DNA of 64,000 bases, taken from an uncultured Chloroflexia bacterium. GTDB lineage: Bacteria; Chloroflexota; Limnocylindria; Limnocylindrales; CSP1-4. The position numbers and the translations under genes were made by a program. The notes under the pieces were generated by a model. The model was not told the origin of the DNA and searched no databases. It saw only the letters and a program-made list of their open reading frames with translations. Positions 2,618 through 63,886 of this stretch are shown piece after piece. Each line of letters begins with the position of its first letter. Position 1 is the stretch's first letter. The stretch spans positions 709,549 through 773,548 of the forward strand of contig CAWBLU010000001.1 in NCBI GenBank assembly GCA_963789725.1. The letters run 5' to 3'.

Positions 2618-2814
2618 TCCCGACACCCGCGCCCCCGACACCCGCGCCCCGACACCCGCGCCCCGACACCCGCGCCCCGACACCCGCGCCCCGACACCCG
2701 CGCCCCGACACCCGCGCCCCGACACCCGCGCCCCGACACCCGCGCCCCGACACCCGCGCCCCGACACCCGCGCCCCGACACCCGCGCCCCGACACCCGCG
2801 CCCCGACACCCGCG
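2618..2814. repeat. Perfect tandem repeat, 14-bp unit ccccgacacccgcg x14 (first two units are 14 and 15 bp)
   Basis: Read directly from the sequence. The array is intergenic, about 40 bp upstream of the tetR ATG, and has no spacers. The tetR coding strand therefore reads (cgcgggtgtcgggg)n. Confidence 0.9.
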
Positions 2815-3069
2815 CCTTCTCAATATCACCCGGGCTGCTGCTACGCCGAGTACCGGGCCGAATGCCTGCTCAATATCAGCCCGGCGAATGCTGAGGTGCG
2901 TTGGGCCGCCCGCTCGGCCACGGCCGGTGCCTGGGCCGGCGGTTCGAGCGTGAGCAGGACAGCGTCGCCGACCTTTCTGCTCCGCGAGTGTGAAACGGCG
3001 GCTTCGCGGCTGCTTTGGATCACCCAGGATGATTCTGAGCAGGTTTGAGTTGGTGTCTGCCCGCCCTGG

Positions 3070-3858
3070 CTATGGCGCGCTCACCGCCGCGTCCACCGGC
3101 CGGCGGAGCAGCCGCAGAGATGCGGTCTGGACGGCGATGACCGCCAGCAGGCCCGCGCCGAAAGCGACGCCGAGACCCAGCTGTTCGATCGTGGAGTTGA
3201 TTACGAGGAAGAACACGATCGTGCCGAAGAGGCCCATCTGAAGCCCTCGAACGACATGGATCGCCGAGCCCGGTCCTTCGAGGTGGTGGGCAAAGACCGC
3301 CAGGACTGTGACATAAACTGGCAGCGCGGCCAGCAGTCCGCTGAGCGAGGGGCCCAGCGTTTCGGCGGCGGCGGTGATCGCCAGCACGATGCCGGTGCCG
3401 ACGATCATCCGGGCGGGGATGTCCCAGGCCGGCGCGGGGGCGATGTCAATCCCCTCGGGCGCGGGAACCGCCAGCGCCAGGCAGACGATCATCACCACGG
3501 CGACCACGGCGAACACGACCACCGCCGGCTCGGCCAGCACGGGCTGCATGGCCAGTGCCGCCGCGGCAAATGCGCCCAAACCGCAGGCCACCGACACCGG
3601 CCAGCCCGCCCGGCGCGCGACCAGTCCGTACGCCAGGGCGAAGGTGGCGTCGCCGAGCAGCCCCGCGATCGAACCCTTGGCCGAACCCGCAGCGAAAGCG
3701 TTCCCCTGGCCCAGGGCAAGGTAGAGAGCGACGGGCCCGGATGTGAGCGGCAGGGCCACGATCCAGCCCCCGACCGCGGGCCCCCAGCGTCGCGCCGCCA
3801 GGCTCACCCCACCGATGAGCAGGGGCGTAAGGCTGAGTTTGAGCAAGAGAAGGGCCAC
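3070..3858 (-). CDS. Polytopic membrane protein of unknown function, paralog A
   Basis: GTG start at 3858 chosen so the N-terminus aligns in length with paralog B (VALLLLKLSLTPLLIGGVSLAARRWGPAVGG vs MIDLFFKIGLPVVMIGIVTLAGHRYGPAVGG). About 8 hydrophobic helices. The first ~100 codons of ORF 3070..4149 are Arg-rich out-of-frame junk. Confidence 0.6.
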   Translation of the reverse strand: MALLLLKLSLTPLLIGGVSLAARRWGPAVGGWIVALPLTSGPVALYLALGQGNAFAAGSAKGSIAGLLGDATFALAYGLVARRAGWPVSVACGLGAFAAAALAMQPVLAEPAVVVFAVVAVVMIVCLALAVPAPEGIDIAPAPAWDIPARMIVGTGIVLAITAAAETLGPSLSGLLAALPVYVTVLAVFAHHLEGPGSAIHVVRGLQMGLFGTIVFFLVINSTIEQLGLGVAFGAGLLAVIAVQTASLRLLRRPVDAAVSAP

Positions 3859-3925
3859 GAACGGAAGGGTATCGGATTGCAGTGTTAGGTCGCCCGGCGC
3901 CGGACGGGCCCAGTCGCTCCAGGCG

Positions 3926-4396
3926 TCAGCGTCCGGAGAATCGCCTGATCTCGCTCGCCATCGCCGCCGAGAATGTCGGCAATGCGGCCGCCACCGGCTC
4001 CGACAGCTCCTCGCCGAACGAGAACTCCGCGCCGCCGATGCCGACGAATACGCCGTCGAGCGGTGCTCCTCGCATCTCCTCGGCGAGGGCCAGGACCTGG
4101 TCGGGGGGCAGCGAATGGGATGAGGCCGGAGTCGCCGCCGCGCGCCCAACGATCTCGGCGAGCGGCAGGACGACGACCTGCCCGGCCGCGATTCCGACCG
4201 CGGCGTCGGCGACGATCAGTGGCGCTCCCAGAGGAACCTCGAGCAGCGCGTCGACCGACAGCTGACCGATCTCCGAGATTTCTGCAAGGGCCACCGTTCC
4301 CGGATCCAGACCCTCGGCCGCCAGCAGAGCCGCCCCGTCGTCGCGGCGCAACCGCTCGCCGCAGACGAGCACCACGACCGGTTGCGTCGGGGTCAC
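3926..4396 (-). CDS. [NiFe]-hydrogenase maturation endopeptidase (HyaD/HoxW/HycI family)
   Basis: The frame within ORF 3926..5476 reads VTPTQPVVVLVCGERLRRDDGAALLAAEGL...IVADAAVGIAAGQVVVLP...SHSLPPDQVLALAEEMRGAP, matching the family pattern VLGxGNxLxxDDGxG...DAxxxGxxPG...SxHxL. The GTG at 4396 overlaps the paralog B stop (GTGA). About 156 aa. Confidence 0.7.
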   Translation of the reverse strand: MTPTQPVVVLVCGERLRRDDGAALLAAEGLDPGTVALAEISEIGQLSVDALLEVPLGAPLIVADAAVGIAAGQVVVLPLAEIVGRAAATPASSHSLPPDQVLALAEEMRGAPLDGVFVGIGGAEFSFGEELSEPVAAALPTFSAAMASEIRRFSGR

Positions 4397-5220
4397 TCGG
4401 CCGCCTCGGGCAGAGCCAATTCGTCGGCTAACTGAGCCTCGACCTCGGCCGCCGGACGGCGCGCCCGGAAGGCGGACCGCAGCTCCACGAATTGCACGAC
4501 GACCACGGCGCATCCCGCCAGGGCGAACGATCGCACGACCCCCAGCGGCTCGAGTGTCGCCGCGACGACCGTCAGAAAGGCGGCGAAGCCCAGTAATCCG
4601 TGAGTCAGGCCGCGCATCACTCCGACCGTCCGGTCCGGTCCTTCCTGCGCGTGAGTGAAGAGCGCCATGACGGCGGCAATCGTTGGGATCGTGGTCAGCA
4701 TGCCGCTCAACGTCGCCCCGAGGCGTGGGCCGGCGGTTGTCACGAAGACCACCATGGCCGCGCCGGCGATCATGCGAGTTGGCAGATCGGACCTGGCGGT
4801 GGCACGGCGCGGCATCGGCGGCGCCTTCGGCAGCAGGCGGCGCGAAACCAGCAGGACGGCCATGGTGGCGACAAACGCCGGGGCCAGTCCCCAGGCCGAG
4901 ATGGGCAGCATGGCCGCCCATGTCACGGCAAACGCCGCGTAGGCCCCGGCACCTGCCACCGACCAGCTGAAACGGCGGCACATCAGGGCATAGGCAAGGC
5001 AGAAGACGCCGCATCCTGCGGCACCGCCGAGCGACGCGGCGGCGGACTTGGCGGCGAACGACGTGTTCTGCTCCAGAGCCAGGAACAGGAGGATCGGGCC
5101 GCCCTTGGCCGGGACGGCGCTGAGAATGCCGCCGACGGCCGGGCCGTAGCGGTGGCCGGCGAGCGTGACGATGCCGATCATCACGACCGGCAGTCCGATC
5201 TTGAAGAAGAGGTCGATCAT
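4393..5220 (-). CDS. Polytopic membrane protein of unknown function, paralog B
   Basis: Start ATG at 5220 (MIDLFFKIGLPVVMIGIV...). Clearly paralogous to the 3070..3858 product, sharing GPAVGG, ALFTHAQEGP/AVFAHHLEGP and VMRGLTHGL/VVRGLQMGL blocks. The ORF-track extension to 5598 is just the translated 61-bp repeat. Confidence 0.65.
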   Translation of the reverse strand: MIDLFFKIGLPVVMIGIVTLAGHRYGPAVGGILSAVPAKGGPILLFLALEQNTSFAAKSAAASLGGAAGCGVFCLAYALMCRRFSWSVAGAGAYAAFAVTWAAMLPISAWGLAPAFVATMAVLLVSRRLLPKAPPMPRRATARSDLPTRMIAGAAMVVFVTTAGPRLGATLSGMLTTIPTIAAVMALFTHAQEGPDRTVGVMRGLTHGLLGFAAFLTVVAATLEPLGVVRSFALAGCAVVVVQFVELRSAFRARRPAAEVEAQLADELALPEAAE

Positions 5221-5229
5221 GTGCGGCCC

Positions 5230-5657
5230 CACGGTAACCGCCGGAGCGTTCGGCCGCCCAGTCGTCGGCTTCGCCTGGTCCGGAGGGCCCCACGGTAACC
5301 GCCGGAGCGTTCGGCCGCCCAGTCGTCGGCTTCGCCTGGTCCGGAGGGCCCCACGGTAACCGCCGGAGCGTTCGGCCGCCCAGTCGTCGGCTTCGCCTGG
5401 TCCGGAGGGCCCCACGGTAACCGCCGGAGCGTTCGGCCGCCCAGTCGTCGGCTTCGCCTGGTCCGGAGGGCCCCACGGTAACCGCCGGAGCGTTCGGCCG
5501 CCCAGTCGTCGGCTTCGCCTGGTCCGGAGGGCCCCACGGTAACCGCCGGAGCGTTCGGCCGCCCAGTCGTCGGCTTCGCCTGGTCCGGAGAGCCCCACGG
5601 TAACCGCCGGAGCGTTCGGCCGCCCAGTCGTCGGCTTCGCCTGGTCCGGAGAGCCCC
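5230..5657. repeat. Perfect tandem repeat, 61-bp unit x7 (cacggtaaccgccggagcgttcggccgcccagtcgtcggcttcgcctggtccggagggccc)
   Basis: Period of 61 confirmed at 5230, 5291, 5352, 5413, 5474, 5535 and 5596. The last two copies carry gagagcc in place of gagggcc. The array lies between the hydrogenase large-subunit stop (5696) and the paralog B start (5220). Since 61 is not a multiple of 3, it is non-coding. Confidence 0.9.
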
Positions 5658-5695
5658 AGGCTGGCCGGTTGGACGATATCCGGCTCCGCGATCGG

Positions 5696-7009
5696 TCAGT
5701 CGCGCTCGACTTCCAGTTTGAGGAAGTGCGTGGCGCAGCTGATGCAGGGGTCGTAGGAGCGGATCAGCTGCTCCAAGCGGATAGTCGCCTCGGCATGGGG
5801 CAGGGTCAGGACCTGAGGAGCGAACTCCGCCAGGTCCGCCTCGATCATGCCCTGGTTCTGGCCGGTGGGGGCAATGATCTGGGCGGCTTCGATCTTGCCG
5901 TTGTCGTCGAGGTCGTAGTGGTGCCAGCAGATGCCGCGCGGCGCCTCGGTGCCCCAGCCGGTGTCGCCGCCGCGCGGGGTCCAGGGCGTGAAGGGTCTGG
6001 CCGGCTCTTCGTACGAGTTGACGATGTCCAGCGCCGAAGCGGAGGCGTGGATCAGCTCAACCGATCGTGCCGCTATCGCCCAGTACGGGTTTCGCGCGAT
6101 CTGCCTGGCCAGGCCGCTCGCGTGGAGAGCCTCGGCCGCCAGGGGGTGGAGCTGGTCGGCGTTGAGAGTTACACGCGCCGACGGACCCAGCATGTATAGC
6201 TTGCCGTCGAGAGTGCGAGCGTGGAGGGCGTTCGTGCCTTCGTGGTGCTCTTCGTGGAAGGCCTCGCGCCAGCCCCACAGCGGCACGTCGATGCCGTCGG
6301 TGGAGACGATCCGGCCCTCGTTCAGGCCGTACTCGATCGGATGCTTGATGGCCACGTAGTGCGGGTCGCGCTCGAACTTGGGCGCCTTGAACGCGGCCAC
6401 GAGCTTGAGCGTCGCGTGAGAGAGCGCCAGCGCCTCCGTCAGGGGCGCCCGAAGGGCCTGGATCTGGTCCCGGCTCGGGGTCCTGGAAAACCCGCCGACG
6501 CGCATCGAGACCGGGTGGATCGCCCGGCCTCCGATGAGCTTCATGATCTCGTTGCCGGTCCGCTTGAGCCTCAGCGCCTGCTCGACGACGGGCTTGTGGT
6601 CGCGCGCCATGGCGATCGCGCTCTCGTAGCCCAGGAAGTCCGGGGCGTGGAGCATGTAGACGTGGAGGGCGTGGCTCTCGATCCATTCGCCCCAATAGAA
6701 GAGCTTGCGCAGGGCTCGAACCTGGGGGTCGATCTCGACCTCGAAAAGGTGCTCGAAGGCCATTGCGGAGCTCATCTGGTAGGCCACCGGACAGATGCCG
6801 CAAATTCGAGCCGTGATGTCGACTACTTCGTTGGGCGTCCTGCCGACGACGAGCTTCTCGAAGTAGCGCGGTGCCTCGAAGATGGAGAGGCTCGCCTCGC
6901 GGACTTCGCCGTCGGTTATGCGCAGCTTTAGCGTGCCCTCGCCCTCGACGCGCGCGATCCCGACAACCTCGAAGTTGCGCTCACCCGTCGTCGTTCCTGC
7001 CTTTGGCAT
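5696..7009 (-). CDS. [NiFe]-hydrogenase large (catalytic) subunit, group 3-like, 437 aa
   Basis: N-terminal RVEGEG...RICGICPVAY (RxCGxC), EAPRG, and C-terminal DPCISCATH followed by the cleavable tail FLKLEVERD. The size and motifs fit soluble group 3 enzymes. No small-subunit gene lies upstream. Confidence 0.85.
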   Translation of the reverse strand: MPKAGTTTGERNFEVVGIARVEGEGTLKLRITDGEVREASLSIFEAPRYFEKLVVGRTPNEVVDITARICGICPVAYQMSSAMAFEHLFEVEIDPQVRALRKLFYWGEWIESHALHVYMLHAPDFLGYESAIAMARDHKPVVEQALRLKRTGNEIMKLIGGRAIHPVSMRVGGFSRTPSRDQIQALRAPLTEALALSHATLKLVAAFKAPKFERDPHYVAIKHPIEYGLNEGRIVSTDGIDVPLWGWREAFHEEHHEGTNALHARTLDGKLYMLGPSARVTLNADQLHPLAAEALHASGLARQIARNPYWAIAARSVELIHASASALDIVNSYEEPARPFTPWTPRGGDTGWGTEAPRGICWHHYDLDDNGKIEAAQIIAPTGQNQGMIEADLAEFAPQVLTLPHAEATIRLEQLIRSYDPCISCATHFLKLEVERD

Positions 7010-8247: not shown

Positions 8248-9351
8248 ATGCCCCGCTATAGTCCAGCGGTGAACCTGCCGTTCAATCCGCCGATCGAGCC
8301 GATGCTGGCCAAACTGACCGAGGCAATTCCCGCCGGCGCCGGCTGGTTGTACGAGCCCAAGTGGGACGGCTTCCGGGCCCTGGTCTTCCGCGACGGCGAC
8401 GAGACGTTCATCCAGAGTCGCGACCTGAAGCCGCTCGACCGCTACTTCCCGGAGCTGCCGCCGGCGCTTCTGGCGGCCCTTCCGTCTCGCTGCGTCCTGG
8501 ATGGCGAAGTGGTGATAGCCGGACCCAACGGCCTGGACTTCGACTCCTTGCTGCTGCGAATCCACCCCGCGGCGTCGCGGGTCAAGATGCTGGCGGCCCA
8601 GACGCCCGCCAGCTACGTGGCCTGGGATCTACTGGCCCTCGATGACCGCGATCTGCGCGCAGTGCCGCAAGGGGAGCGGCGCGCGCTCCTGGAGCAGGTC
8701 CTGGCCGACGCTCCACCACCCGTGCATCTGACCCCATCGACAGCCGATGCGTCGGTCGCGGCCGACTGGTTCCATCGGTTCGAGGGCGCCGGCCTGGACG
8801 GCGTCGTCGCCAAACGGACGTCGGACCCGTATATGCCGGCCAAGCGTGGCTGGGCCAAGATCAAGCACGCCCGCACCGCCGATTGCGTCGTGGCCGGATT
8901 TCGGTGGCACAAGAACGGACCGGGCACCCTGGTCGGCTCTCTCCTGCTGGGGTTGTACGACGATACCGGCCGATTGAACCACGTCGGCATCACCGCCAGC
9001 TTCACCACGGATAAACGCCGCCAGCTGGTCGAGGAACTTGCCCCTTTGCGTGCAGAGGCCCTCCAGGGCCATCCCTGGGCGGAATGGGCCGAATGGGAGG
9101 CCGCCGCGCGCGCGTCGGGCCAGCGCATGCCGGGAGCGACCAGCCGCTGGAACCGCGGTCGCGATCTGACGTGGGAGCCGTTGCGCGCCGAGCGAGTCTG
9201 CGAGGTCGCCTACGACCATTTGCAGGGCGACCGCTTCCGCCACGCCACTACGTTCGTGCGCTGGCGCCCGGACAAGCGCCCGTCGGATTGCCGCTACGAT
9301 CAGCTGGAGTCGACCGCCCCGTTCGAACTGGCAGCGATCTTCGGGCGGTAG
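8248..9351 (+). CDS. ATP-dependent DNA ligase (LigC-type, adenylation + OB domains)
   Basis: Motif I EPKWDGFR (KxDGxR), DGEVV, WDLLALDD, DGVVAKR and WAKIK. 367 aa. Confidence 0.85.
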   Translation: MPRYSPAVNLPFNPPIEPMLAKLTEAIPAGAGWLYEPKWDGFRALVFRDGDETFIQSRDLKPLDRYFPELPPALLAALPSRCVLDGEVVIAGPNGLDFDSLLLRIHPAASRVKMLAAQTPASYVAWDLLALDDRDLRAVPQGERRALLEQVLADAPPPVHLTPSTADASVAADWFHRFEGAGLDGVVAKRTSDPYMPAKRGWAKIKHARTADCVVAGFRWHKNGPGTLVGSLLLGLYDDTGRLNHVGITASFTTDKRRQLVEELAPLRAEALQGHPWAEWAEWEAAARASGQRMPGATSRWNRGRDLTWEPLRAERVCEVAYDHLQGDRFRHATTFVRWRPDKRPSDCRYDQLESTAPFELAAIFGR

Positions 9352-9381: not shown

Positions 9382-10698
9382 TCAGCGGAACTGGCTCCAC
9401 GGGTCGTAGTCCACCTCGAGCGGCTCCTGCGGCGGCCGTTCCGCCTCGGGGACGTGCTCGAGGTTGACGCGGATCCGGTACCAGAGCTTGTAGCGGCCGC
9501 GCATGCCGTCGACCAGAACGTCTAGCGGGTCGAGGTAGCCGGCGACGGAGCCGTGGCGCTCCTTCCAGCTTTCGAAGCCGGCGAGCGCCTCCTCCTTGGT
9601 CGCCGCCCGCGCGATCTCGATGAGTGGCTTTGTCGAGATGCGCCGGCCGGTCGGGGAGCGGCCGGACTCGGCCCCACCGCCCGGCCCGGCCGCATCGGTC
9701 TTGCGTGCCCGCGACGGCATGACCCTGGGCGGCTCGCCCGGCGCCTTGGCGTAGTGCGGCGGCCACGGCGCGTCGCCCATGCCTTCCTTCTCCTGCCGAG
9801 CGGACAACTCCAGCAACTGGGCCAGCGAGCCAGCGGCCTCGTCGATTCCGGCGCCCGGATCGCCGACCCGCGCATACCGCGCCGGAACCGTTGCCAGCGT
9901 GAAATCACCCAGCTCGCATGAAGGCAACTCGTCCCAGGTCACCGGCGCCGAGACGCGCGCGTCCGGCACCGGCCGGACCGAGTAGGCCGAAGCCACGGTT
10001 CGGTCCTTGGCGTTCTGGTTGTAGTCGATGAAGACGCCGTGGCGCTCTTCCTTCCACCACTTGCTGGAAGCGATCGTCGGGGCGCGGCGCTCGATCTCGC
10101 GAGCCAGGGCGACGGCGGCGCGCCGGACCTGATCGAACGTCCAGCGCGGTTCGATACGAACGTTGATATGGATCCCGCGCGAGCCCGAGGTCTTGGGCCA
10201 GCCGACGAGCGAGTGGTCGGCCAGGACTTCGTGGGCCACCAGGGCCACGCGGCGGATGTCGTCCCAGGGCACGCCCGGCATCGGATCCAGGTCGACCCGC
10301 AGCTCGTCGGGGTGGTCGAGGTCGTCGGCGCGGATGGCGTGCGGGTTCAGGTCGATGCAACCGAGGTTCGCGACCCAGGCCAGTCCGGCGGCGTCGTCGA
10401 GGACGATCTCGTCGGCTGTTCGTCCGGACGGGAAGGACAGCTCCACGGTCCGCAGCCACTCCGGCCTGGACTCCGGGGCGCGTTTCTGGAAGAAGTACTC
10501 ACCGTCGGCGCCGTTCACGAAGCGCTTCATCGCCATCGGCCGGCGTCCGGCGCCGCGCAGGGCGCCATCGGCCACGGCCATGTAGTACGAGACGAGGTCG
10601 CGCTTGGTGTAGCCCGGTCCTGCGAAGAAGATCTTGTCCGGATTCGTGATCGAGACCTGCCGGCCCGCGACCTCTACGACTTCGCTTCGCGTTGGCAT
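9382..10698 (-). CDS. LigD-type NHEJ polymerase/primase domain protein with C-terminal extension
   Basis: GYTKRDLVSYY, WPKTSGSRGIHINV and FIDYNQN blocks typical of the LigD polymerase domain (archaeo-eukaryotic primase fold), about 300 aa. An extra ~130 aa C-terminal region of unknown function follows. Confidence 0.85.
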   Translation of the reverse strand: MPTRSEVVEVAGRQVSITNPDKIFFAGPGYTKRDLVSYYMAVADGALRGAGRRPMAMKRFVNGADGEYFFQKRAPESRPEWLRTVELSFPSGRTADEIVLDDAAGLAWVANLGCIDLNPHAIRADDLDHPDELRVDLDPMPGVPWDDIRRVALVAHEVLADHSLVGWPKTSGSRGIHINVRIEPRWTFDQVRRAAVALAREIERRAPTIASSKWWKEERHGVFIDYNQNAKDRTVASAYSVRPVPDARVSAPVTWDELPSCELGDFTLATVPARYARVGDPGAGIDEAAGSLAQLLELSARQEKEGMGDAPWPPHYAKAPGEPPRVMPSRARKTDAAGPGGGAESGRSPTGRRISTKPLIEIARAATKEEALAGFESWKERHGSVAGYLDPLDVLVDGMRGRYKLWYRIRVNLEHVPEAERPPQEPLEVDYDPWSQFR

Positions 10699-63196: not shown

Positions 63197-63886
63197 CTAC
63201 TTTGGCGGCATCGGCAGGATGGACCAGTCGTCGTTCCTCGAGTTGGGAACGTAGCGGCTGTTCGCGGCCTTGTACACCAGCGCCCCGAAGCCGGCGCTGC
63301 GCCAGGTGGTGATGAAGCTGCCGATCGGCGGCCTGACGAACGGCGTGATCCGGACGAGGTCGCCCGGCTCGAGCGCACCGTCGAGGAGCCGCTTGCGCTC
63401 CAGCAGGGGAAGGTCGAGCAGCCGCGAGCCGTCGATCGACAGGAGGTCGACGGCGACGAACGCGATGGGTCGATCAGGATCGAGCCGGCGTTCCGGAGCC
63501 GCCATTCGGGCAACGCGGCTGCCGACCAGGAACTGGGTCATCATCTGGCCGGTCGTCGGAGCGGCGGGCTCCTGGACCGTCGTCCCTTCGGTGGGCTGGG
63601 TCGGCTCGACCGTGAGGAATCCGTCGAGAATCAACTCGCCCGCCAGCGCAGACGAGGCGATCGCGGCTGCGACCTCGGCGAACTCGGCGGTGCAGTCGAC
63701 CCCTTCTTCGTCGACGAGTGTCGCTGCCGCGCCGTCGTAGCGGACGAGGACGCGGACTCCGCCCCACCTGGGCTCGATGACCGCGTCGCGCGTCCGGCTC
63801 CCGCCGCGACCGCAGCGTTGCGGTCGCCAATCGGCCGGATCGCTCGGCGGCTGCGGCGGCGGTGGATGTCGGCGGAAGATCGGCAT
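63197..63886 (-). CDS. ATP-dependent-ligase-like adenylation domain protein with degenerate motif I (possible inactive ligase homolog), no OB domain
   Basis: IEPRWGGVRVLV aligns to the ligase motif I EPKWDGFRALV but with the catalytic K changed to R and D to G. Motif-like blocks follow: LDGFL, VDLLSIDGSRLLDLPLLERKRLL and GALVYK. About 229 aa. Confidence 0.45.
   Translation of the reverse strand: MPIFRRHPPPPQPPSDPADWRPQRCGRGGSRTRDAVIEPRWGGVRVLVRYDGAAATLVDEEGVDCTAEFAEVAAAIASSALAGELILDGFLTVEPTQPTEGTTVQEPAAPTTGQMMTQFLVGSRVARMAAPERRLDPDRPIAFVAVDLLSIDGSRLLDLPLLERKRLLDGALEPGDLVRITPFVRPPIGSFITTWRSAGFGALVYKAANSRYVPNSRNDDWSILPMPPK

Follow-up and report, generated by a model that had tools for sequence, protein, structure and literature searches.

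The locus described here pairs the catalytic (large) subunit of a [NiFe]-hydrogenase with a maturation protease and two membrane proteins, mem1 and mem2, and its phylogeny and gene neighbourhood point to the deletion, once and in place, of the genes for the FeS small subunit (HyhS) and the fused diaphorase (HyhBG) in the ancestor of one clade of Candidatus Limnocylindrales. Since that deletion, purifying selection has maintained the large-subunit (LSU), protease, and mem genes. In cytoplasmic hydrogenases of this type, the two-subunit form is normally obligate. We tentatively interpret the locus as a derived descendant of a bacterial group-3b operon (HyhBGSL; NAD(P)-linked, cytoplasmic) that lacks a small subunit and in which the LSU may work with a mem partner.

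All features of the locus (3070–7009) are carried on the minus strand of the window, the 64-kb stretch of DNA that was analysed, with the LSU followed downstream by a sevenfold 61-bp tandem array, mem1, the hydrogenase endopeptidase, and mem2 (Table 1). The upstream neighbour of the LSU, a gene running from 8069 to 7170, encodes a product whose start carries a signal peptide and a lipobox (LVAAC), and ends 160 bp from the LSU start, in agreement with a preliminary description of this DNA. That description had also reported no small-subunit or diaphorase gene upstream, and this was borne out: tblastn (E ≤ 0.1) returned no match to a small subunit or HyhBG homologue in the 64-kb window, and searching the ORFs of the window against Pfam recovered no hyp, Oxidored_q6, or diaphorase genes.

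Table 1. Features of the hydrogenase locus in the 64-kb window
Feature	Position	Strand	Details
LSU ([NiFe]-hydrogenase large/catalytic subunit, group-3b type, HyhL-like)	5696..7009	-	ATG 7009, TGA 5696; 437 aa
Tandem array, 61 bp x 7.1, in the LSU–mem1 spacer	5225..5658		TRF
mem1, 8-TM membrane protein	4393..5220	-	275 aa; family uncharacterised
Hydrogenase maturation endopeptidase (HybD/HycI/HoxW superfamily)	3926..4396	-	GTG 4396, TGA 3926; 156 aa; TIGR00072, PF01750
mem2, paralog of mem1	3070..3858	-	GTG 3858; 262 aa; tblastn and alignment

The endopeptidase sits, as first described, between two paralogous membrane proteins of about eight transmembrane (TM) helices (~39% identity between mem1 and mem2 by tblastn and alignment). 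It was also said to follow the LSU directly on the same strand and to be coupled to the downstream paralog by a GTGA overlap; strand and identity stand (TIGR00072, 67.2 bits, cut-off 47.45; Pfam HycI, 27.9 bits, cut-off 23), but mem1 intervenes, and the overlap (4396–4393) instead joins the mem1 stop to the GTG start of the endopeptidase, whose own stop lies 67 nt from the mem2 start. The endopeptidase is 43–50% identical to the post-LSU protease of two canonical operons (L002 and L086) and has a weak PDB match (5ija_A); its E14, D64, and H94, which we take to occupy the positions of the HybD metal-binding triad, form a candidate triad. The tandem array, absent from the preliminary description, makes up 434 of the 475 bp of the LSU–mem1 spacer, with copies 99% identical; its 61-bp unit length is not divisible by 3, so the array is non-coding. 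It arose locally, by amplification of a segment native to the spacer: the unit has single-copy partial matches in the same spacer of three related loci (L107, L108, and L111), and this spacer spans 33–160 bp in most related loci.

The LSU matches PF00374 (108.9 bits) and ShyA/HydA in NCBIfam, its best hit in the PDB is the alpha subunit of sulfhydrogenase I (9nez_D, E = 2.4e-65), and its homologues at 93% identity, in Ca. Limnocylindrales, are named Ni/Fe hydrogenase subunit alpha. The nickel-binding motifs noted earlier are RICGIC (68–73) and DPCISCATH (420–428), with C70, C73, C422, and C425 as Ni/Fe ligands, and the tail noted with them, FLKLEVERD, consists of the nine residues after H428 (429–437); RVEGEG (residue 20, including E22) and EAPRG (355, including R358) are present as well. 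The Tyr of RICGICPVAY (Y77), initially regarded as an oddity, is instead the rule among bacterial 3b-type LSUs: of 88 LSU-bearing loci, 86 matched the scan, and all 86 have the Tyr, RICGICPxAY being the sole form found, in a set that includes LSUs of canonical operons from many phyla. Group 1 and archaeal enzymes, including that of P. furiosus, have His at this position.

We surveyed about 170 related loci, comprising about 120 canonical relatives and 47 loci without a small subunit, with stored flanks reaching 10 kb on each side. In essentially all of the canonical relatives, whose LSUs are at most 72% identical to that of the window, HyhBG and HyhS lie immediately upstream, consistent with the earlier expectation that a group 3 LSU directly follows its small subunit. 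None of the 47 loci with an LSU at least 76% identical carries a small subunit or HyhBG in the stored flanks (up to 10 kb), and the arrangement, which the preliminary description had proposed to look for in related genomes, recurs among them. The LSU nests inside bacterial 3b LSUs with HyhBG-HyhS-HyhL-protease operons; the LSUs lacking a small subunit are monophyletic in 100 of 100 NJ bootstraps, and the canonical locus L086 is their sister in 95 of 100. In L086 (LSU 70% identical), HyhBG-HyhS-LSU-HycI precedes TetR/ABC/MFS genes, which are also the neighbours in the window; the canonical L002 operon is placed between a ligase and L25/RR-HK genes. A monophyletic clade that is sister to a canonical operon at a syntenic site argues for a single deletion in place. 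A cognate small-subunit gene adjacent to the LSU of a close relative had been proposed as the mark of a recent deletion remnant; L086 has such a gene, but the deletion is old rather than recent: its descendants have by now diverged to 76% amino-acid identity (dS ~0.65) under purifying selection.

The strength of this selection bears on the suggestion, made in the preliminary description, that the locus is decaying, with the LSU and protease as remains of a lost operon that are turning into pseudogenes. The missing electron-transfer subunits would fit such decay, as would the structural plasticity of these loci (insertions between mem1 and protease, and the tandem array in the window's spacer) and one MAG copy, L010, that looks frame-shifted. 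Yet no stop interrupts any of 35 distinct full-length sequences of 437 aa, every catalytic residue is invariant, and LSU dN/dS within the clade lies at 0.08–0.19 (median 0.135 over 774 pairs, at dS ~0.65), as low as the 0.17 of canonical pairs of like divergence. The protease is likewise constrained (dN/dS 0.20–0.35), and mem1 values span 0.07–0.31. We therefore consider decay highly improbable.

A rather unlikely alternative is a split operon, in which the HyhS and HyhBG genes were relocated rather than lost: the LSU would assemble with their products, or with a small subunit belonging to a different hydrogenase, from genes elsewhere in the genome, and function as a normal NAD(P)-linked group-3b enzyme, the mem genes being unrelated neighbours. 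Isolated LSUs are poor catalysts (PMC8159394), a point in its favour. Of the 141 LSU positions that are conserved in canonical enzymes, the clade keeps 131, among them all Ni/Fe ligands, E22, and R358, a retention that would also suit an LSU still binding a small subunit from elsewhere in the genome; the endopeptidase and the cleavable tail have been kept too, and in canonical enzymes tail cleavage comes before docking on the small subunit. On the other side, no split 3b operon was seen among the ~120 relatives from many phyla with their almost invariably adjacent small subunits, synteny places the deletion at the ancestral site, and the 47 loci have no small subunit in their stored flanks. 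The clade has also fixed changes (H83M, C106W, P380A, S383G, and E325S/A) at canonically conserved LSU residues. A weaker point is that, among the best 120 homologues of the sister small subunit, the four largest clusters all correspond to small subunits from canonical loci, and none shares a contig with an LSU of the clade.

The case for a membrane partner comes from gene linkage. Where loci of the clade have enough downstream sequence, at least one mem paralog almost always lies beside the LSU (29 of about 30); no mem gene was found near the ~120 canonical loci. The position of mem1 is between LSU and protease, close behind the former in most loci (33–160 bp) and overlapping the start of the latter (by GTGA in the window). 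An orthologue of mem1 occurs in most loci of the clade and mem2 in types A and C of related loci, and one or the other has been reciprocally lost in several separate branches. The association stems from one ancestral event, and its conservation is thus partly shared ancestry. The linkage also varies: one locus (L087) has LSU and protease without a mem gene, and three (L089, L090, and L121) have mem1 with no protease within 2.7–3.7 kb. Each mem protein is a tandem duplication of a 4-TM unit, as seen in mem1 (hhalign of N-half against C-half, 96.6% probability), for which an AF2 model is all-helical (pLDDT 82). We found no Pfam match and no real match to PDB folds for mem1. Each half of mem1 and mem2 is weakly similar to the ~110-aa, 4-TM DUF3147/PRK09272/'GlpM-like' proteins (both halves of mem2 match PRK09272, E = 2e-6; mem1 gives weak matches only, and one mem1 orthologue is annotated 'GlpM family' by JGI), but scores fall far under curated cut-offs and the 8-TM proteins form a large, uncurated family of their own. 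The concern that they might belong to a well-known, independently conserved family was justified in part: the family is independently conserved (3413 clusters at 50% identity) but uncharacterised. Residues H23, C70, C81, and H207 are specific to the mem1 subfamily; mem2 is nearer than mem1 to stand-alone members (48% identical to that of L083); no redox-cofactor motif is recognisable in the family.

These properties could also suit an LSU that functions without a small subunit and without mem as a physical partner, an explanation we regard as unlikely: the LSU would be soluble, activating H2 weakly, sensing H2 or nickel, or storing nickel, and mem would supply nickel or another ion, or be a co-transcribed passenger. 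Most family members adjoin no hydrogenase genes, L087 lacks mem altogether, and two stand-alone relatives have TrkH/TrkA and a c-di-AMP receptor as neighbours, a hint of ion transport. Nickel-transporter genes are, moreover, common in hydrogenase clusters. However, mem shows no similarity to known Ni/Co transporter families in Pfam or NCBIfam (only the weak DUF3147/PRK09272 matches), and canonical relatives need nickel equally yet have no mem gene nearby. Reciprocal loss of paralogs, with one copy nearly always left beside the LSU and its protease, points to more than a passenger role.

After HyhS and HyhBG were lost in place, with the catalytic subunit and endopeptidase retained, the mem genes came to share the LSU's transcription unit. 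Under the membrane-partner interpretation, Hyp proteins encoded elsewhere would supply the NiFe(CN)2CO cofactor, and the adjacent endopeptidase would trim the LSU after His428. Rather than docking on HyhS, the LSU would sit at the cytoplasmic membrane face with a hetero- or homo-oligomer of mem1/mem2, which may cover the face usually shielded by the small subunit and serve as output partner, either passing reducing equivalents to a membrane-soluble acceptor or placing mem's own, possibly ion-transport, activity under H2-dependent control. Such a covering partner is plausible in that an LSU on its own can carry the cofactor intact but activates H2 only weakly, the small subunit normally excluding water (PMC8159394).

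Likeness to bacterial group 3b (archaeal counterparts: sulfhydrogenases I/II of Pyrococcus/Thermococcus, PDB 9nez and 5yxy) is clear in LSU homology (E = 2e-65 to SHI alpha), motifs, the Tyr that follows the first CxxC, and the type of both C-terminal tail and endopeptidase. The clade's loci differ in encoding no FeS relay or NAD(P) site, in carrying membrane-protein genes instead, and in having their own H83M, C106W, P380A, and S383G. Membrane-bound group 4 [NiFe]-hydrogenases and Ehr complexes also combine an LSU-type protein with integral membrane proteins; to our knowledge a NuoB-like small subunit and antiporter subunits of Mrp/Nuo type are always part of them, and Ehr LSUs have lost the Ni-binding cysteines, whereas the LSU of the window is of group 3b type with intact cysteines and its membrane proteins are an unrelated 8-TM family. 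The closest parallels to an LSU without its small subunit are isolated HoxC (of the regulatory hydrogenase) and HoxG (of the membrane-bound hydrogenase) of Cupriavidus necator, studied in vitro, which retain intact NiFe(CO)(CN)2 and show H/D exchange (PMC8159394, PMC9886862). Those are very poorly active laboratory preparations from two-subunit enzymes, whereas the state seen here is a gene arrangement that is natural, inherited, and selected across an entire clade: a soil and peat lineage of Chloroflexota retains a hydrogenase catalytic subunit and its protease under strong selection without the electron-transfer subunits that would normally be encoded next to them.

The preliminary description had read the window as carrying an orphan [NiFe]-hydrogenase large subunit (LSU), and this holds across all 64 kb (G+C ~68%; close homologues of the window proteins bear the name Candidatus Limnocylindrales, phylum Chloroflexota). 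Searches by tblastn with the FeS small subunit (SSU), diaphorase, and cNMP-binding protein of a related canonical operon gave no match in the window at E ≤ 0.1, and a Pfam sweep of the window ORFs, which returned sugar transporters, regulators, NHEJ ligase genes and similar, recovered no SSU, diaphorase, or hyp genes. Genes of the hyp type are also absent next to L002 and L086, two related loci with canonical operons. Downstream of the LSU, the expected same-strand maturation endopeptidase is present, but a membrane protein gene, mem1, intervenes, so that the protease is not directly next to the LSU. Two paralogous membrane proteins (~39% identical) do flank the protease, mem1 before and mem2 after, and the GTGA overlap originally placed between protease and mem2 actually joins the mem1 stop to the protease start. 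The 475-bp spacer between LSU and mem1 holds a tandem array that had been overlooked (61 bp × 7.1), ending 5 nt before the mem1 ATG. Single-copy partial matches to its unit (29–45 nt, ~91% identity) in the same spacer of three relatives (L107, L108, and L111) indicate that the array arose recently, by local amplification of sequence native to the spacer. A perfect array of a 14-bp unit (CCCGACACCCGCGC) lies just upstream of a TetR-family gene, and the related locus L001 carries a different tandem array at the equivalent site, ahead of its own TetR gene; these genomes seem to undergo intergenic tandem expansion readily. A promoter and terminator scan across the locus yielded nothing informative. 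The locus is bordered by an NHEJ gene pair that is a conserved synteny marker in canonical and SSU-less relatives alike, and another ligase-domain ORF sits at the far end of the window.

Table. Features of the hydrogenase locus and its surroundings (window coordinates)
Feature	Position	Strand	Remarks
TetR-family gene	1745-2560	minus	
14-bp tandem array	2619-2816		14.1 copies
mem2	3858-3070	minus	262 aa; GTG start, 67 nt past protease stop
Endopeptidase	4396-3926	minus	156 aa; GTG start overlaps mem1 stop
mem1	5220-4393	minus	275 aa
61-bp tandem array	5658-5225		434 bp; copies 99% identical
LSU	7009-5696	minus	437 aa
ATP-dependent DNA ligase	8248-9351	plus	NHEJ pair
LigD primase-polymerase	9382-10698	minus	NHEJ pair
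Ligase-domain ORF	63197-63886		

The LSU matches PF00374 and contains RVEGEG, RICGIC, EAPRG, and DPCISCATH, followed by a nine-residue tail, FLKLEVERD. RICGIC (residues 68–73) and DPCISCATH (420–428), which correspond to the four-Cys Ni-Fe site motifs RxCGxC and DPCxxCxxH, are invariant throughout the clade of SSU-less relatives, as are E22 (in RVEGEG) and R358 (in EAPRG); these correspond to the proton-transfer Glu (RxEG motif) and to the conserved Arg that overlies the active site, roles established for group 1 enzymes. Among solved structures, the LSU is closest to the alpha subunits of sulfhydrogenase I, a group 3b enzyme (E = 2.4e-65 against PDB), the best NCBIfam models are ShyA and HydA, and in our survey of loci and neighbor-joining (NJ) tree the protein nests among LSUs of HyhBGSL operons. 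Its closest sequence relatives thus assign it to group 3b, and the SSU neighbor (HyhS, PF01058) and HyhB/HyhG that mark operons of this group are missing from the window and from 47 SSU-less loci; we classify the locus with group 3b as a variant, one that would represent a distinct architecture if the genomes hold no SSU. The locus does not fit a group 4 membrane-bound hydrogenase or Ehr, whose LSU is of NuoD/HycE type: NuoD profiles match the LSU only marginally, and the Pfam sweep of window ORFs found neither a NuoB-like SSU nor antiporter-like membrane subunits. Nor does it fit an H2-sensing regulatory hydrogenase (group 2b): there the LSU is without a C-terminal extension and has its own SSU, HoxB, and a partner histidine kinase, HoxJ, whereas the window LSU is of group 3b type, with a nine-residue tail and a protease but no SSU or adjacent kinase. 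Finally, the Tyr in RICGICPVAY, at first taken for an oddity, proved to be a family trait—using scan patterns that left this position unconstrained, RICGICPxAY was the only form found in 3b-type LSUs, with Tyr in all 86 scan-matching loci (of 88 bearing an LSU). Loci with complete operons in Acidobacteriota, Actinomycetota, Proteobacteria, Nitrospira, and others are among these, and the Tyr is accordingly rejected as evidence that the motif has degenerated; in the archaeal P. furiosus enzyme this residue is His.

We then drew on ~170 loci from individual homologues, a one-genome-per-species scan, and a metagenome scan, all scored by tblastn. Where the LSU was at most 72% identical to that of the window (~120 loci, many phyla), a PF01058 SSU lay immediately upstream, preceded by the diaphorase HyhBG, the sole exceptions being contigs broken off at the LSU. 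Canonical operons of the Limnocylindria type have a HyhB-HyhG fusion (~670 aa; L002 6579–9106) with a separate cNMP-binding gene before it; in most other phyla (comparison of L022–L082), a cNMP-binding-like region sits between the HyhB-like and HyhG-like parts. Where the LSU was at least 76% identical, all 47 loci had no SSU or HyhBG in the stored flanks (up to 10 kb), so the arrangement first noticed in the window recurs across related genomes. The SSU-less LSUs are monophyletic (100/100 NJ bootstraps), and the sister of their clade (95/100) is L086, a Limnocylindrales contig with a canonical HyhBG-HyhS-LSU-HycI operon. In both L086 and L002, the canonical operon has the neighbors of the window locus, with the ATP-dependent ligase and LigD to one side and, to the other, TetR, ABC transporter, MFS, ribosomal protein L25, and a two-component system. 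The SSU-less locus therefore arose in place from a 3b operon, and the simplest reading is a single deletion of hyhBG-hyhS at the ancestral site.

The main rival explanation is that the SSU is encoded elsewhere in the genome. Such a split arrangement occurs in none of the ~120 relatives, however, and synteny shows a deletion at the ancestral site. As weaker evidence, no unassigned SSU clade turned up among the best 120 homologues of the sister SSU—the four largest clusters all match canonical SSUs, and none shares a contig with an SSU-less LSU.

Decay of the locus, which the preliminary description had considered, is contradicted by dN/dS and conservation analyses. Within the SSU-less clade, LSU dN/dS ranged from 0.08 to 0.19, with a median of 0.135 (774 clade pairs, dS ~0.65) against 0.17 for 143 canonical pairs of similar divergence. 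Of 141 positions with at least 90% conservation among canonical LSUs, the clade keeps the same residue at 131, including the four Cys, E22, R358, and H428, a degree of retention that would also fit an SSU encoded elsewhere. Conserved canonical positions fixed otherwise in the clade are H83M, C106W, V169M, P228G, P380A, S383G, and E325S/A, where His83, Cys106, Glu325, Pro380, and Ser383 are conserved across the ~120 canonical bacterial 3b LSUs; the distance to the outgroup is somewhat greater for the SSU-less clade than for its canonical sister. The genes for mem1, mem2, and the protease are constrained as well (dN/dS 0.07–0.35). Together with the survey of relatives, these analyses show that the SSU-less arrangement is real, inherited, and under selection. 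In one related locus (L010 871–2053; MAG fen_1046, PMJT01000043), the SSU-less LSU was matched as two overlapping tblastn pieces, suggesting a frameshift due either to an assembly error or to a rare pseudogenized copy.

The SSU-less LSU is consistently linked to the endopeptidase and the mem family. Among ~30 informative SSU-less loci, defined by at least 2.4 kb of sequence downstream of the LSU, 29 contain at least one mem paralog and 27 the protease, while mem genes occur in none of the ~120 canonical loci. Three gene orders recurred: type A, LSU-mem1-protease-mem2, as in the window; type B, LSU-mem1-protease; and type C, LSU-protease-mem2. On the LSU tree, types B and C are interspersed with type A, implying that one or the other mem paralog was lost several times independently, and only L087 is missing both. 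This pattern suggests that the paralogs are redundant, with selection retaining one of them beside LSU and protease. The LSU–mem association does trace to a single event, and shared ancestry contributes to its conservation. Gene content ahead of the protease is otherwise variable: a ~420-aa lipoprotein is inserted before the protease in L003 (12392–13651), L092, L093, L096, L125, and L143, and a ~227-aa opposite-strand gene lies between LSU/mem1 and protease in L087 (9399–10082) and nine other loci, neither having a Pfam match. Two candidates for a substitute SSU upstream of the LSU were rejected—the lipoprotein, with homologues in just two related loci and no Cys motifs, and a commoner gene (~150 aa, single-pass), which is absent from the window and also has no Cys motifs.

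The endopeptidase scored above curated cut-offs for TIGR00072 (67.2 versus 47.45) and PF01750 (27.9 versus 23). By inspection, its E14, D64, and H94 fall at positions matching the metal-binding Glu/Asp-Asp-His triad of E. coli HybD (E16/D62/H93) and are candidate metal ligands; PDB 5ija is a weak match, in a phmmer search against PDB dominated by spurious TALE-repeat matches. In two type A loci (L001 12183–13160 and L094 12227–13186), a 2H-phosphoesterase domain (2',5' RNA ligase-like, PF13563) with two HxT motifs is fused N-terminal to the endopeptidase and begins straight after the mem1 stop.

Neither mem1 nor mem2 has a Pfam match above cut-off. Both halves of each weakly resemble DUF3147 (PF11345)/PRK09272, with scores so far under the cut-offs (Pfam 8.2 bits versus 23.6; NCBIfam 28 versus 162) that we regard this as resemblance rather than membership, and no Pfam or NCBIfam match to Ni/Co transporters (NiCoT/HoxN, HupE/UreJ, CbiMNQO) appeared even at E ≤ 10. 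Each protein consists of a 4-TM unit duplicated in tandem (hhalign, N-half versus C-half: 96.6% probability, E = 6e-10), and the AlphaFold model of mem1 is confident (pLDDT 82) and all-helical, with no meaningful match among solved structures. A profile search with the mem family returned 3413 clusters at 50% identity, indicating a large uncurated family; ten distant relatives have no Pfam match, and source names are only “hypothetical” or “GlpM family.” Five stand-alone relatives occupy unrelated contexts. Two of these—one directly upstream of trkH-trkA (L174 6001–8850) and one immediately following a c-di-AMP receptor gene, PF06153 (L083 5627–6804)—offer a weak hint of a link between this family and K+ or osmotic homeostasis. 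Among mem1 orthologues, His23 (Arg in the wider family), Cys70, Cys74, Cys81, and His207 are near-invariant, with the three Cys spaced i, i+4, i+11 on one predicted helix; Cys70, Cys81, His23, and His207 distinguish the mem1 subfamily, and mem2 lacks them. We set aside the mem1-specific Cys and His residues as cofactor ligands, given that type C loci have no mem1 at all.

Taken together, we propose that the LSU would be matured and would function alongside the membrane proteins, which would stand in for HyhS. An LSU on its own can hold the cofactor and cleave H2, though poorly, because the SSU excludes water (PMC8159394); if the LSU here is catalytic, a protein covering its exposed face would accordingly be expected. 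A more specific version strikes us as unlikely though worth stating: a natural [NiFe] hydrogenase without any FeS SSU, whose matured LSU docks directly on pseudo-symmetric 8-TM mem1/mem2, with H2 activation at the Ni-Fe site either driving the direct two-electron reduction of an acceptor soluble in the membrane or gating the membrane protein in an H2-dependent way. If true, such an SSU-less, mem-docked hydrogenase would have an architecture not covered by the four-group [NiFe] scheme.

To our knowledge, [NiFe] hydrogenases are treated as obligate large-plus-small-subunit enzymes. Hydrogenase surveys commonly drop LSU genes without an adjacent SSU. One survey of Chloroflexi hydrogenases, for example, excluded LSUs without a nearby SSU from its counts (bioRxiv 10.1101/2021.08.23.457424), and the literature searched gave no account of a [NiFe] LSU clade that naturally goes without an SSU, of a Limnocylindria hydrogenase arranged in this way, or of this locus. 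Here, purifying selection acts on the LSU throughout a clade of bacteria abundant in peat and soil, as strongly as it does in complete enzymes. This reflects either an undescribed use of the Ni-Fe site without an FeS relay or operon splits missed by annotation pipelines, and both outcomes affect how H2-metabolizing capacity is counted in metagenomes. The clade also provides a first functional handle on a large uncharacterized membrane-protein family, and, for the “minimal hydrogenase” idea, a test case from nature, where work to date has used only artificially isolated subunits.
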